Assembly: GCF_003790525.1 (NCBI RefSeq) | Contig: NZ_CP033635.1 | Direction: 5' to 3' (one strand) | DNA: 64,000 bases | Origin: Escherichia coli | Lineage (GTDB): Bacteria > Pseudomonadota > Gammaproteobacteria > Enterobacterales > Enterobacteriaceae | Shown here: positions 2,965-60,703 of the stretch, one piece after another | Layout: every line of letters starts with the position of its first letter | Numbering within the stretch: the stretch's first letter is position 1 | Notes under the pieces: model-generated | Databases searched by the model: none | Told to the model about the DNA's origin: nothing | What the model saw: the letters and a program-made list of their open reading frames with translations, nothing else | Position numbers and translations under genes: made by a program

Positions 2965-3008
2965 AACCGTAGGCCGGATAGGGCGTTCACGCCGCATCCG
3001 GCAGCCGT
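2965..3008. repeat. REP (repetitive extragenic palindrome) element in the yhdP-tldD intergenic region
   Basis: Sequence gtaggccggatagggcgttcacgccgcatccggcag matches the REP consensus (GCCGGATG...CATCCGGC palindrome). Confidence 0.7.
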
Positions 3009-3034: not shown

Positions 3035-4495
<1,461 letters not shown>

Positions 4496-4544
4496 TAATT
4501 TCAGTATTTTCAGAAGGATAATTAATCCTTCTCCGTGTACGAAC

Positions 4545-4585
4545 GGTCCCCTCGCCCCTCTGGGGTTAGGGTGAGGGGAACCCGT
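4545..4585. repeat. GC-rich palindromic intergenic repeat (CCCCTCGCCCCT...GGGTGAGGGGAA); second copy at 22396-22430
   Basis: Inverted repeat cccctc/gagggg seen directly; a near-identical motif recurs between nanA and nanT. Confidence 0.5.
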
Positions 4586-4622
4586 TGGCACAGGTTTGTA
4601 CTACGTAACAGTACAATATTAA

Positions 4623-5552
4623 TTACTTCTCTTTCCCGCGCCCGTGCATCTCCTGAAACAATTTACCGACCTCAACAAAATAATCCGTCAGCGAGTTGAT
4701 CACGACCTGTACCTTCAGCGGTAGCTTATCTTTTTCGGTATACAACGCATAAACCGGGCGTGGATCTGACTGGTAACGCGGCAGCAGGATCTCCAGTTCC
4801 CCGCGATTGATCTCGTTGATCACCCACATCAGCGGCACGTAGGCGATCCCGGCACCCGCCGTCAGCCAGCGCACCAGCGTCATCGGATCATTAGTCACAA
4901 ATCTTCCTTGTGGGATCAGGCGAGTCGAGATCCCTTCCGGTGCGATCAGTTCAAATTCATTGTCGGGCCGCACGCTGTATTCAAGCCATGAATGACTACT
5001 CAAATCGGCGGGTTTTTCCGGTATGCCGTATTGTGTGAGATAGCTTTTCGCGGCGCACACCACCATCGGCATCGCGCCCAGACGGCGGGAAAACAGGCTG
5101 GAATCCTGCAACGCGCCGACGCGGATCACCACATCCAGACCATCGGCAATCAGGTCGGGGGCAGGAATTCCGGTAACCAGATTGACGCTCAAACCTGGGT
5201 ATTCTTTCAGCATTTTTGCTGTCAGCCCGGCGAGAACATTTTGTGCCATAGTTGAAGAACAGCCAATGCGCAGCGTCCCGATGGGGGTGTTATTGAAGGC
5301 ATACAGTTGCTCATGAACATCCTGCACTTCATGGAGCATCCGACGGCAGCCCTGGTAGTAAATTCTACCGGCTTCGGTCAGGCCAATGCTGCGTGTGCTA
5401 CGGTTTAACAGCTTTACCTGTAACTCATCTTCCAGTTTTGACACCGTCTGACTGATGGACGAAACGCTCATCTGTAGCTGTCTGGCGGCGGCGGTAAAAG
5501 AGCCAAATTCAACTACTTTGGCAAACACCGACATGCGTTTTAGTCGTTCCAT
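4623..5552 (-). CDS. aaeR: LysR-family transcriptional regulator AaeR (309 aa)
   Basis: ORF with N-terminal HTH typical of LysR regulators; divergent from aaeXAB as in E. coli. Confidence 0.93.
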   Translation of the reverse strand: MERLKRMSVFAKVVEFGSFTAAARQLQMSVSSISQTVSKLEDELQVKLLNRSTRSIGLTEAGRIYYQGCRRMLHEVQDVHEQLYAFNNTPIGTLRIGCSSTMAQNVLAGLTAKMLKEYPGLSVNLVTGIPAPDLIADGLDVVIRVGALQDSSLFSRRLGAMPMVVCAAKSYLTQYGIPEKPADLSSHSWLEYSVRPDNEFELIAPEGISTRLIPQGRFVTNDPMTLVRWLTAGAGIAYVPLMWVINEINRGELEILLPRYQSDPRPVYALYTEKDKLPLKVQVVINSLTDYFVEVGKLFQEMHGRGKEK

Positions 5553-12961: not shown

Positions 12962-14329
12962 TTAACGCATCAGCAGATAGATGCTTTCATTGCCGCGTAC
13001 AATTTGCAGGGCGATGATGGCCGGTTTTGCCGCCAGCACTTTACGCATTTCAGCAATCGAGTTCACCCGATCGCGGTTGACGCCAATGATCACATCGTCT
13101 TTTTGCAAGCCAGCCTGAGCAGCTGGGCTTCCTTTGACAACCTCATCGATCTTAATACCTTTGCCGCCATCTTTTAGCTGACCATCGCTCAACGTTGCAC
13201 CTTCCAGCGCTGGCGTGATCATTTCAGCGCTGGCCGACGAAGAGGTGCTGGTATCAAGCGTCACTTCTACTTCCAGTGGTTTGCCGTTACGCAGCAGGCC
13301 AAGTTTCACTTTTGTGCCCGGCTCGGTGGTCGCGATACGAGAGCGCAACTCAGCAAAGCTATTCAGCGGTTTGCCGTTGAGGCTGGTAATAATATCGCCC
13401 GCTTTGATGCCCGCTTTTGCCGAGCCAGAACCTGGCAACACTTCGCTGACAAACGCGCCACGCTGCACGTCAAGGTTGAAGGCTTTGGCGATATCGGCAC
13501 TCATCTCTGTGCCTTTGATGCCTAACAGACCGCGTTTGATTTCACCGAAGTCGATAAGCTGCTGCGCCAGTGTTCGCGCCATATTACTGGGGATGGCAAA
13601 TCCAATCCCGACGCTCCCACCGCCAGGCGCAAGGATTGCAGTGTTGATGCCAATTAACTCACCGTTAAGGTTTAACAGTGCACCGCCGGAGTTACCGCGG
13701 TTAATGGAAGCATCTGTCTGGATAAAGTTTTCAAGACCTTCAAGATTCAACCCGCTGCGGCCTAATGCGGAAACAATGCCAGAGGTGGCGGTTTGCCCAA
13801 GGCCAAATGGGTTACCGACCGCCACGGCAAAATCACCGACGCGCAATTTATCGGAGTCGGCAATAGCGATTTGCGTTAATTTGCTCGGGTTTTGAATTTG
13901 CAACAGGGCGATATCGCTCTGGTCATCGCTACCAATCAGTTTTGCATCAAACTCGCGCCCATCATTGAGCTGAATACTGATTTTCTGTGCCTGATTAATC
14001 ACATGGTTGTTGGTCAGCACATAGCCTTTACTGGCGTTGATGATGACACCGGAGCCTAAACCTTCGAAGGGTTGTGCAGGTTGATCCGGTAAATCATCAC
14101 CAAAAAACTTTTTGAATTCTTCCGGGATTTTCTGTCCCTGACTGGCCGTTCCTTCCACCCGTACGCTCACCACTGCCGGAAGCACTTTTTCCAGCATTGG
14201 GGCCAGACTGGGGAGAGGGGCCTGATCGGCAACCTGGCCTGGAATCGACGCAACGGCCTGAAATGACGCCGAGAGAGTTAACCCGACACTTAACGCTAAT
14301 GCACTCAACAGCTGGGTTTGTTTTTTCAT
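12962..14329 (-). CDS. degQ: Periplasmic serine endoprotease DegQ (455 aa)
   Basis: Internal Met (MKKQTQLLSALALS... signal peptide) of track ORF 12962..14371; recognised as DegQ. Confidence 0.94.
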   Translation of the reverse strand: MKKQTQLLSALALSVGLTLSASFQAVASIPGQVADQAPLPSLAPMLEKVLPAVVSVRVEGTASQGQKIPEEFKKFFGDDLPDQPAQPFEGLGSGVIINASKGYVLTNNHVINQAQKISIQLNDGREFDAKLIGSDDQSDIALLQIQNPSKLTQIAIADSDKLRVGDFAVAVGNPFGLGQTATSGIVSALGRSGLNLEGLENFIQTDASINRGNSGGALLNLNGELIGINTAILAPGGGSVGIGFAIPSNMARTLAQQLIDFGEIKRGLLGIKGTEMSADIAKAFNLDVQRGAFVSEVLPGSGSAKAGIKAGDIITSLNGKPLNSFAELRSRIATTEPGTKVKLGLLRNGKPLEVEVTLDTSTSSSASAEMITPALEGATLSDGQLKDGGKGIKIDEVVKGSPAAQAGLQKDDVIIGVNRDRVNSIAEMRKVLAAKPAIIALQIVRGNESIYLLMR

Positions 14330-21495: not shown

Positions 21496-22389
21496 ATGGC
21501 AACGAATTTACGTGGCGTAATGGCCGCACTCCTGACTCCTTTTGATCAACAACAAGCACTGGATAAAGCGAGTCTGCGTCGCCTGGTTCAGTTCAATATT
21601 CAGCAGGGCATCGACGGTTTATACGTGGGTGGTTCTACCGGCGAAGCCTTTGTACAAAGCCTTTCCGAGCGTGAACAGGTACTGGAAATCGTCGCCGAAG
21701 AGGCGAAAGGCAAGATTAAACTCATCGCTCACGTAGGTTGCGTCAGCACCGCCGAAAGCCAACAACTTGCGGCATCGGCTAAACGTTATGGCTTCGATGC
21801 CGTCTCCGCCGTCACACCGTTCTACTATCCTTTCAGCTTTGAAGAACACTGCGATCACTATCGGGCAATTATTGATTCAGCGGATGGTTTGCCGATGGTG
21901 GTGTACAACATTCCGGCGTTAAGTGGCGTTAAACTGAGCCTGGATCAGATCAACACTCTGGTTACGTTGCCAGGTGTTGGCGCGCTGAAACAGACCTCTG
22001 GCGATCTCTATCAGATGGAGCAGATCCGTCGTGAACATCCGGATCTGGTGCTCTATAACGGTTACGACGAAATCTTCGCCTCTGGTCTTCTGGCGGGCGC
22101 TGATGGTGGTATCGGTAGTACCTACAACATCATGGGCTGGCGTTATCAGGGCATTGTTAAGGCGCTGAAAGAAGGCGATATCCAGACCGCGCAGAAGCTG
22201 CAAACCGAATGTAATAAAGTCATTGATTTACTGATCAAAACGGGCGTATTCCGCGGCCTGAAAACGGTCCTCCATTATATGGATGTCGTTTCTGTGCCGC
22301 TGTGCCGCAAACCGTTTGGTCCGGTAGATGAAAAATATCTGCCAGAACTGAAGGCGCTGGCCCAGCAGTTGATGCAAGAGCGCGGGTGA
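21496..22389 (+). CDS. nanA: N-acetylneuraminate lyase (297 aa)
   Basis: Full ORF; recognised as NanA. Confidence 0.97.
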
Positions 22390-22395
22390 GTTTTT

Positions 22396-22430
22396 TCCCC
22401 TCGCTCGCCCCTACCGGGTGAGGGGAAATA
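22396..22430. repeat. Second copy of the GC-rich palindromic repeat (cccctcgctcgcccctaccgggtgaggggaa)
   Basis: Shares the CCCCTCGC...GGGTGAGGGGAA ends with the element at 4545-4585. Confidence 0.5.
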
Positions 22431-22497
22431 AACGCATCTGTACCCTACAATTTTCATACCAAAGCGTGTGGGCATCGCCCACCGCGGGAGACTCACA

Positions 22498-23988
22498 ATG
22501 AGTACTACAACCCAGAATATCCCGTGGTATCGCCATCTTAACCGCGCACAATGGCGGGCATTTTCCGCTGCCTGGTTGGGATATCTGCTTGACGGTTTTG
22601 ATTTCGTTTTAATCGCCCTGGTACTCACCGAAGTACAGGGTGAATTCGGGCTGACGACGGTGCAGGCGGCAAGTCTGATCTCCGCAGCCTTTATCTCTCG
22701 CTGGTTCGGCGGCCTGATGCTCGGCGCTATGGGTGACCGCTACGGGCGTCGTCTGGCAATGGTCACCAGCATCGTTCTCTTCTCGGCCGGGACGCTGGCC
22801 TGCGGCTTTGCGCCAGGCTACATCACCATGTTTATCGCTCGTCTGGTCATCGGCATGGGGATGGCGGGTGAATACGGTTCCAGCGCCACCTATGTCATTG
22901 AAAGCTGGCCAAAGCATCTGCGTAACAAAGCCAGTGGTTTTCTGATTTCCGGCTTCTCAGTGGGGGCCGTCGTTGCCGCTCAGGTCTATAGCCTGGTGGT
23001 TCCGGTCTGGGGCTGGCGTGCGCTGTTCTTTATCGGCATTTTGCCAATCATCTTTGCTCTCTGGCTGCGTAAAAACATCCCGGAAGCGGAAGACTGGAAA
23101 GAGAAACACGGGGGTAAAGCACCGGTACGCACGATGGTAGACATTCTTTACCGTGGTGAACATCGCATTGCCAATATCGTAATGACACTGGCGGCGGCTA
23201 CTGCGCTGTGGTTCTGCTTCGCCGGTAACCTGCAAAATGCCGCGATCGTCGCTGTTCTTGGGCTGTTATGCGCCGCAATCTTTATCAGCTTTATGGTGCA
23301 GAGTACGGGCAAACGCTGGCCAACGGGCGTAATGCTGATGGTGGTCGTGTTGTTTGCTTTCCTCTACTCATGGCCGATTCAGGCGCTGCTGCCAACGTAT
23401 CTGAAAACCGATCTGGCTTATGACCCGCATACTGTCGCCAATGTGCTGTTCTTTAGTGGCTTTGGCGCGGCGGTGGGGTGCTGCGTCGGTGGCTTCCTCG
23501 GTGACTGGCTGGGAACCCGCAAAGCGTACGTTTGTAGTCTGCTGGCCTCGCAGCTGCTGATTATTCCGGTATTTGCGATTGGCGGCGCAAACGTCTGGGT
23601 GCTCGGTCTGTTACTGTTCTTCCAGCAAATGCTTGGACAAGGGATCGCCGGGATCTTACCGAAACTGATTGGCGGTTATTTCGATACCGACCAGCGTGCA
23701 GCGGGCCTGGGCTTTACCTACAACGTTGGCGCATTGGGCGGCGCACTGGCCCCAATCATCGGCGCGTTGATCGCTCAACGTCTGGATCTGGGTACTGCGC
23801 TGGCATCGCTCTCGTTCAGTTTGACGTTTGTGGTGATCCTGCTGATTGGTCTGGATATGCCTTCTCGCGTTCAGCGTTGGCTGCGCCCGGAAGCATTGCG
23901 TACTCATGACGCTATCGACGGCAAACCATTTAGCGGTGCCGTGCCATTTGGCAGCGCCAAAAACGATTTAGTCAAAACCAAAAGTTAA
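22498..23988 (+). CDS. nanT: Sialic acid transporter NanT (MFS, 496 aa)
   Basis: Internal Met [14 protein letters not shown]... of track ORF 22468..23988; recognised as NanT. Confidence 0.95.
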
Positions 23989-44695: not shown

Positions 44696-44805
44696 CCCCG
44701 GCTAGACCGGGGTGCGCGAATACTGCGCCAACACCAGGGAAATCTTGGCTGCGCCGTAAATTATTATGATGAGTTACAAGGGCACAGCACTGTTTTTCAG
44801 GCCGC
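44687..44805 (-). ncRNA. arcZ: Small regulatory RNA ArcZ (SraH/RyhA), convergent with arcB and overlapping its 3' end
   Basis: Reverse complement reads GTGCGGCCTGAAAAACAGTGCTGTGCCC...GGCGCAGTATTCGCGCACCCCGGTCTAGCCGGGGTCATTTTTT, matching the recalled ArcZ sequence and terminator. Confidence 0.8.
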
Positions 44806-44924
44806 ACGCAGTTAAGATAGCAAAACTTAAATGATTTGTTACATGAATCAGTTAAATGTGTGATGCGTAGCATTTTTATTAAAAAAATTAATGTGTTTCA
44901 GTCAATTGCGAAAGGATGATCACA

Positions 44925-58889: not shown

Positions 58890-60149
<1,260 letters not shown>

Positions 60150-60475: not shown

Positions 60476-60703
60476 CTTTCCTCACTCCTTAAGTTAGTCG
60501 CTTTCATTCAGAACACTTCTTCTGTCGAGCATCACTATACTCCTGATGGCCTATTGCTCTAAAAAGTTCCTGTAAAGAGTGTGAATATTCAGAATATATA
60601 AAGATACATACACTGGTTTTTCAGGCGTTATTGCGCTGAATAAGTGTTTTTATGGAACTTATTGGAATCATCCCGCGCACTGCGCGGGATGAGGGGGAGG
60701 GGA

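Follow-up and report, generated by a model that had tools for sequence, protein, structure and literature searches.

Introduction

BoxC elements (Bergler 1992; Bachellier 1999) are non-coding interspersed repeats of the Enterobacteriaceae, which Holder 2015 (PMC4666352) equated with the PIT elements of Hoyne and Maher (2000, 2002) and with TMECO. The TMECO consensus reads CCCTCNCCC-N3-6-GGGNGAGGG-N3-GGGNGAGGG; a complete unit thus has a single C-rich block and two G-rich ones, and it forms a purine-motif triplex in vitro when one DNA strand is present on its own (PMC4666352). According to the same paper, the second loop is TTA in type-A and CCG in type-B elements, the latter reading ...CCGGGGTGAGGG, and 'mm' variants have one mismatched position at which a G of the C block stands opposite a T. 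For K-12 MG1655, Table 1 of PMC4666352 contains 23 elements, among them TMECO #14, CCCTCGCCCCTTTGGGGTGAGGGTTAGGGTGAGGGG, at 3,390,494-3,390,529. TMECO loci were described as hypervariable, more so than control intergenic sites, and deletions leaving hairpins were reported, for which Holder et al. proposed slippage as the mechanism; even full elements showed no evidence of a stable triplex when footprinted with DMS in vivo (PMC4666352). In the tests of Hoyne and Maher (2002), as they are cited in PMC4666352, promoter or terminator activity of PIT elements was absent and RNA polymerase was unaffected.

Here, we compare two GC-rich palindromes of Escherichia coli with this family and with other repeats and hairpins that occupy similar sites. 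We conclude, with a probability of roughly 85%, that both are eroded BoxC elements that have been reduced to hairpins, do not act as terminators and are most likely tolerated decay products without a dedicated function.

Results

Two hairpin-forming palindromes at gene ends

The analysed window is a stretch of 64,000 nucleotides of E. coli (assembly GCF_003790525.1, contig NZ_CP033635.1). An earlier sequence-only reading of this window had singled out two GC-rich palindromes, referred to below as copy 1 and copy 2, as a small family of hairpin- or terminator-forming intergenic repeats, one located between the convergent genes tldD and aaeR and the other in the nanA/nanT operon. Both palindromes are present in these places, between the following genes:

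3050-4495, plus strand: tldD, upstream of copy 1
4623-5552, minus strand: aaeR, convergent with tldD, copy 1 lying between the two
21496-22389, plus strand: nanA, upstream of copy 2
22498-23988, plus strand: nanT, downstream of copy 2 and in the same operon as nanA

Copy 1 has the sequence tCCCCTCGCCCCTCTGGGGTTAGGGTGAGGGGaa (core 4548-4578) and copy 2 the sequence ttttttCCCCTCGCTCGCCCCTACCGGGTGAGGGGaaat (core 22397-22425), the repeated span being about 47 nt in the former and about 41 nt in the latter, with locus-specific flanks. The two have in common the exact 12-mer GGGTGAGGGGAA, which is found twice in the window and 0.00 times in 100 shuffles. The 8-mer CCCCTCGC recurs in both copies and nowhere else in the window (2 found versus 2.15 expected, and thus non-significant alone), and in copy 1 it overlaps by one base with CCCCT, a shared motif named in the earlier reading. 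Both copies are imperfect palindromes that, as had been anticipated, form hairpins; their GC-rich stems have 10-11 bp, and the folds are more stable than those of shuffled controls: the RNA folds of the plus strand have predicted energies of -32.0 kcal/mol for copy 1 (z -2.8 versus shuffled) and -30.6 kcal/mol for copy 2 (z -5.2), and the DNA folds -16.0 and -15.0 kcal/mol, respectively. The start of copy 2 lies 2 nt downstream of the stop codon of nanA (22387-22389), and about 70 nt separate the end of its hairpin from the nanT start (22498). The 501 bp around copy 1 are 100% identical to several strains including SMS-3-5, in which the site is likewise annotated as tldD/aaeR.

The convergent tldD/aaeR spacer also contains two AT-rich hairpins, one on either side of copy 1, at 4512-4532 (AGAAGGAT-AATTA-ATCCTTCT) and 4596-4616 (TTGTACT-ACGTAAC-AGTACAA). 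No T tract follows either of these two hairpins, and a canonical intrinsic terminator is visible for neither tldD nor aaeR.

Comparison with terminators, REP elements and RNA families

With intrinsic terminators, the copies share a GC-rich stem-loop just past a stop codon, and it is on these 10-11 bp stems at gene ends that a reading of both copies as Rho-independent terminators or attenuators could draw. The U tract 3' of the stem is, however, missing: no U/T tract follows the stem at either copy on either strand, and copy 2 even has its T run 5' and its A run 3' of the stem, where both lengthen the stem. Scans for terminators and for promoters called no site at either copy. In addition, copy 2 is operon-internal, and the genes that follow it have to be expressed; PIT/BoxC elements were without terminator activity in the published tests cited in PMC4666352. 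We consider a terminator or attenuator role of the two copies hardly credible, and this part of the sequence-only reading is not supported.

Like the copies, REP/BIME (PU) elements are short, imperfect, GC-rich palindromes that occur between the genes of operons and where convergent genes end. Their consensus, GCCKGATGCGRCG, has matches in other parts of the window, e.g. at 2990-3002 and 59779-59791, but with up to two mismatches allowed none of its 20 window matches overlaps 4535-4581 or 22391-22431, which excludes a REP/BIME identity of the copies. The exact REP consensus GCCGGATGCGGCG is present at 2973-3002 and 59779-59791, the first of these matches being paired and situated in the spacer just upstream of tldD. 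ERIC elements, also called IRU, are imperfect palindromes of about 127 bp with a conserved core, compared with repeated spans of only about 47 and 41 nt at the two copies. Permissive Rfam scans around both copies yielded chance matches only, far below the family thresholds. In the whole window, the sole Rfam match at the gathering threshold was the small RNA ArcZ at 44700-44807 on the minus strand (120.8 bits).

Copy 1 and the K-12 element at tldD/aaeR

The enterobacterial repeat class to which the palindromes had been supposed to belong can be named: it is BoxC (PIT, TMECO), which was among the candidates listed at the time. For copy 1, the following features were assigned:

4535-4581, plus strand: copy 1, a type-A BoxC/TMECO element in a form lacking six bases (delta-6 allele), with flanks GTGTACGAACGGTC ... 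GAAC, from the profile match and the K-12 alignment
4549-4557, plus strand: C-rich block CCCTCGCCC, matching the first TMECO consensus block
4562-4565, plus strand: GGGG, remnant of the middle G block, for which K-12 has GGGGTGAGGG; six bases deleted according to the alignments
4566-4578, plus strand: loop TTA (type-A signature) and intact 3' G block GGGTGAGGGG, from the sequence

An nhmmer search with a BoxC profile from which the K-12 orthologue had been left out matched copy 1 with E=2.6e-9, and a type-A-only profile with E=2.8e-11. The coordinates of TMECO #14 fall in the aaeR-tldD spacer of NC_000913.3, and in this spacer the K-12 element and its flanks are identical to the window apart from two differences, a T>C change affecting the first loop and a gap of 6 bp that falls within the middle G block. 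Since copy 1 aligns with the K-12 sequence save for this one gap, it is, on the alignment, the orthologue of the catalogued TMECO #14 with a small internal deletion. The C block, the type-A TTA loop, the 3' G block and the conserved flanks are all alike in the two. Relative to a complete BoxC, copy 1 has the 5' block CCCTCNCCC and, as TTA plus GGGTGAGGGG, the 3-nt loop with the second GGGNGAGGG block, whereas the middle GGGNGAGGG block 3-6 nt past the C block is not intact, the 6-bp deletion having left GGGG only, and the three-block triplex pattern is broken.

In agreement with a dispersed, multi-copy, intergenic family, the median number of matching places per genome among 5,426 complete E. 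coli genomes was 15 when the query was the 61 bp around copy 1 and 13 when it was the K-12 form of 67 bp; the range was 1-25, and no annotated feature lay under the matches. In a strain whose sequence equals that of the window over 501 bp, there were 9. The motif does recur, as the sequence-only reading had expected, and with a median of 13-15 places per E. coli genome its family is not the small one that had been proposed. The placement at gene ends is likewise a tendency of the K-12 members, since of 12 fetched K-12 loci six lie between convergent genes and one inside the pstA/pstB operon. These loci showed that the type-A flanks extend beyond the published core, which is preceded by approximately GYGCAC-N4-6-CGGTC and followed by GAAC or GAAAA.

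The published three-block TMECO regular expression recovered 15 elements in the fetched K-12 loci and had no match on either strand of the whole window. What had gone unnoticed in the window is that both copies are truncated derivatives without the middle G block of the family. Three G-rich near-matches at 14211, 34408 and 60687 were rejected, as the partner C block is missing or the context is unrelated, with profile E>2. Around the last of these, at 60670-60702 on the plus strand, lies the GC-rich hairpin TCCCGCGCA-CTG-CGCGGGA with the G-rich run TGAGGGGGAGGGGA after it; having neither a C block nor a profile match, it was dismissed as a BoxC candidate.

Length alleles at tldD/aaeR

Searches of the 5,426 complete E. 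coli genomes with the window form (61 bp) and the K-12 form (67 bp) gave reciprocal identity bands. Three length alleles at tldD/aaeR were seen directly in representative sequences; the genome counts given with them are estimates from BLAST identity bands and match spans together with five inspected sequences, rather than per-genome calls:

Full allele (K-12, O157:H7): ...CCCCTTTGGGG(T/A)GAGGGTTAGGGTGAGGGG; about 2,039 genomes, about 38%
Delta-6 allele (window, Nissle 1917, ATCC 11775, SMS-3-5, BL21-derived): ...CCCCTCTGGGG, six-base gap, TTAGGGTGAGGGG; about 2,700-2,830 genomes, about 50%
Delta-12 allele (AR_451): ...CCCCTCTGGGGTTAGGGG; about 550 genomes, about 10%

The strains Nissle 1917, ATCC 11775 and SMS-3-5 were placed in the delta-6 group by their 100% match to the window query, and the BL21-derived strains by the 61-bp, 88% band of the search with the K-12 form. 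A match in NCTC9064 was set aside, since it belongs to another BoxC pair, located at a different site, and does not represent an allele of tldD/aaeR.

The delta-12 allele, which in AR_451 reads CCCCTCGCCCCTCTGGGGTTAGGGGAA (61-115 of the fetched sequence), differs from the delta-6 allele by a further 6 bp that are missing from the 3' G block. In both steps, (T/A)GAGGG has disappeared from between GGG triplets, which we read as a probable signature of slippage, the mechanism also proposed by Holder et al. The direction from the full to the deleted forms is suggested by the family consensus. In the order full, delta-6 and delta-12, the predicted energies are -17.4, -16.0 and -17.0 kcal/mol for the DNA folds and -36.1, -32.0 and -34.0 kcal/mol for the RNA folds. 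The alleles thus keep a duplex stem of similar predicted stability, and the part that is lost corresponds to the third strand of the putative triplex.

These alleles bear on the idea that a triplex, or H-DNA, is still active at the two copies at the DNA level, where it would stall replication and drive local genome instability. The tldD/aaeR site is indeed multi-allelic, and TMECO loci in general vary more than control intergenic sites (PMC4666352). On the other hand, both copies lack the second G block and depart from the three-block pattern, even full elements gave no triplex footprint in vivo (PMC4666352), and the polymorphism more plausibly reflects instability in the past than a function exerted today, so that an active triplex appears extremely unlikely to us. 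As one of the three strands is missing, the intrastrand triplex is predicted to be lost in both copies.

Copy 2 and its counterparts in other genera

The features of copy 2 are as follows:

22391-22431, plus strand: copy 2, probable BoxC relic, in which T run, stem, loop, stem and A run form an extended hairpin; from the fold, the profile and the cross-genus register
22397-22408, plus strand: C-rich arm, CCCCTCGC followed by a repeated TCGC, from the sequence
22414-22425, plus strand: type-B-like CC and 3' G block GGGTGAGGGG, with no middle G block, from the sequence

The profile built from all K-12 elements matched copy 2 with E=0.041, the second-best match in the window. It again ranked second in the window with a cross-genus set (E=0.078), a type-A-only profile (0.22) and a type-B-only profile (0.13), the last of which was built from 7 sequences and did not improve its score. 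With BoxC, copy 2 has in common the C arm, the 3' G block, a type-B-like flank and the characteristic mismatch of the 'mm' type, a G opposite a T, which its stem keeps. The C block CCCTCNCCC is matched in part, as CCCTCGC, a 4-nt TCGC repeat and CCC, which means that the 9-mer is interrupted; the loop and 3' block, CC plus GGGTGAGGGG, are type-B-like and one G short of CCG. Compared with a complete BoxC, copy 2 differs by this extra 4-nt TCGC duplication and by its middle block: no GGGNGAGGG was found there, either in the sequence or in the cross-genus alignment, and the three-block triplex pattern is absent.

Within E. coli, the nanA/nanT spacer is at least 97.7% identical over 261 bp in 5,408 genomes and hence so nearly invariant that no strain of the species resolves the origin of copy 2. 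For this reason, the nanA loci of 80 species were fetched and the spacer was read after each nanA stop codon. The short form of copy 2 is present in 6/6 Escherichia genomes including E. albertii, in which the left arm is CCCTCACCC, E. whittamii and cryptic-clade strains, and the relic is fixed across the genus. Complete BoxC elements that match the regular expression stand at the position of copy 2, as inverted pairs, in Pseudocitrobacter faecalis, P. vendiensis and Enterobacter sp. kpr-6, and Kluyvera species have a degenerate BoxC after nanA. The forward BoxC elements of P. faecalis and kpr-6 align in register with copy 2 at the T-rich flank and the C block, while copy 2 has no middle block. 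The flanks in common are TGAGTTTTT on the 5' side and AAACGCATC on the 3' side for P. faecalis, and the T run and the A run for kpr-6.

As the profile similarity of copy 2 is borderline alone, its assignment is based mainly on this positional orthology across genera. Profile E-values of only 0.04-0.2, the missing middle block and a C block interrupted by four bases could also be expected of an independent local hairpin that resembles BoxC by chance or by compositional convergence. Such an origin would have to account for the exact 12-mer in common with copy 1, for which 0 occurrences are expected, for a G.T stem mismatch as in 'mm' BoxC, for the type-B-like CC(G) loop with a T-rich 5' flank, and for complete BoxC elements with common flanks at the same site in other genera; we regard it as very unlikely. 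Copy 2 is much more probably an old BoxC relic, as judged from these sequence comparisons.

In P. vendiensis, the nanA-nanT region (3458-3742 of the fetched locus) contains a 73-bp tandem unit, which comprises a full type-A BoxC and is present in 3.4 copies with 94% matches, accompanied by one inverted type-B copy. This array indicates that BoxC can amplify locally.

Stem-loops in the nanA-nanT spacer

Most of the 80 species have a GC-rich palindromic element right after nanA. About 12 of these elements are BoxC or relics thereof (Escherichia, Pseudocitrobacter, Kluyvera, Enterobacter kpr-6), and at least 32 Citrobacter, Salmonella, Enterobacter and Lelliottia genomes have REP/BIME-like elements instead; the REP-like elements of Citrobacter, Salmonella and Enterobacter fill the same slot with a sequence unrelated to the copies. 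Other GC-rich hairpins are found in many nanA-nanT spacers, within the first ~30-400 nt or so after the nanA stop codon. Two Trabulsiella species have hairpin-free spacers of 32-33 nt, and in one Enterobacter the spacer measures 46 nt. A literature search for a nanA-nanT stem-loop returned nothing relevant. The substitutions seen in the stem in other Escherichia, a G>A at a G.U position and a C>T giving U.G, keep the pairing in the mRNA sense, and the RNA hairpin of copy 2 is predicted to be far more stable in the sense than in the antisense orientation (-30.6 versus -20.8 kcal/mol).

REP elements in other operons have been shown to protect the upstream message or to set expression ratios. By analogy, the hairpins, and copy 2 in particular, could be selected as stem-loops that protect the upstream nanA and tldD messages against 3'-to-5' exonucleases or set the nanA:nanT ratio, with BoxC serving merely as raw material. 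This is the main rival to decay without function. The frequent palindromes right after nanA fit with it, as do the near-invariance of copy 2 in E. coli, the pairing-keeping substitutions, the sense-strand bias in stability and the preserved stability of all three tldD/aaeR alleles. Against it, the short spacers of Trabulsiella and of the one Enterobacter indicate that a stem-loop is dispensable, operon spacers are permissive landing sites for repeats, and only two or three substitutions bear on pairing, each with a chance of about 50% of keeping it. Taken together, we find selection for the hairpins rather unlikely and prefer the reading of both copies as tolerated remnants of BoxC.

A second hairpin of the same spacer, GCG-T-GTGGGC-ATC-GCCCAC-CGC at 22464-22485 on the plus strand, directly adjoins the Shine-Dalgarno sequence of nanT, GGGAGA at 22486-22491. 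The hairpin is kept with compensatory changes in Escherichia, Kluyvera, Pseudocitrobacter, Raoultella, Leclercia, Siccibacter and Phytobacter and is missing from the Citrobacter/Salmonella-type spacer. In an alignment of 14 sequences, 88% of the cells are paired compared to at most 50% with slid partners, and two pairs change on both sides. This hairpin may control nanT translation or mRNA processing.

Discussion

The closest described relatives of the two palindromes are BoxC elements, from which both differ by the loss of the middle G block. In the history that we propose, copy 1 would have lost six bases of this block by slippage between the GGG triplets of GGGNGAGGG, and a second six-base loss would have produced the delta-12 allele of other strains. 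Copy 2 would be an older relic that has been reduced to its C arm and its 3' G arm. In both copies, the C arm would now pair with the 3' G block to form a plain hairpin, or a cruciform-capable palindrome in DNA, and transcription would yield stable stem-loops, in the tldD 3' region for copy 1 and in the nanA-nanT spacer for copy 2. These stem-loops would be the sole physical consequence of the copies and would at most impede the 3'-to-5' decay of RNA in a REP-like manner, to the benefit of the upstream message; a weak protection of this kind is possible at nanA/nanT. In this proposal, the slippage and the neutrality of the copies are what we infer; the family identity, the orthology, the allele structure and the absence of terminator features are what the sequence comparisons show.

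A more far-reaching reading would regard the nanA-nanT spacer as a slot under selection for some stem-loop, which unrelated repeats have filled, BoxC in Escherichia, Pseudocitrobacter and Kluyvera and REP/BIME in Citrobacter, Salmonella and Enterobacter, and in which BoxC was 'defused' in slippage steps of 6 bp. If this were true, a triplex-capable form that is hazardous for replication would have been turned into a harmless hairpin and then retained, and the three tldD/aaeR alleles would represent such defusing caught midway. We consider this reading doubtful and favor tolerated decay.

The finding is real and ordinary. Descriptions of BoxC go back to 1992, the K-12 catalogue already includes the tldD/aaeR copy and the tendency of the family to decay to hairpins is already published, so that little new biology is involved. 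Nevertheless, a repeat that had been left unnamed now has a name, and its reading as a terminator can be dropped. For the family, the two copies illustrate that pattern-based TMECO catalogues overlook eroded elements. Finally, the full, delta-6 and delta-12 forms at tldD/aaeR make up a natural allele series for asking whether the loss of the third strand ends triplex formation and local instability.
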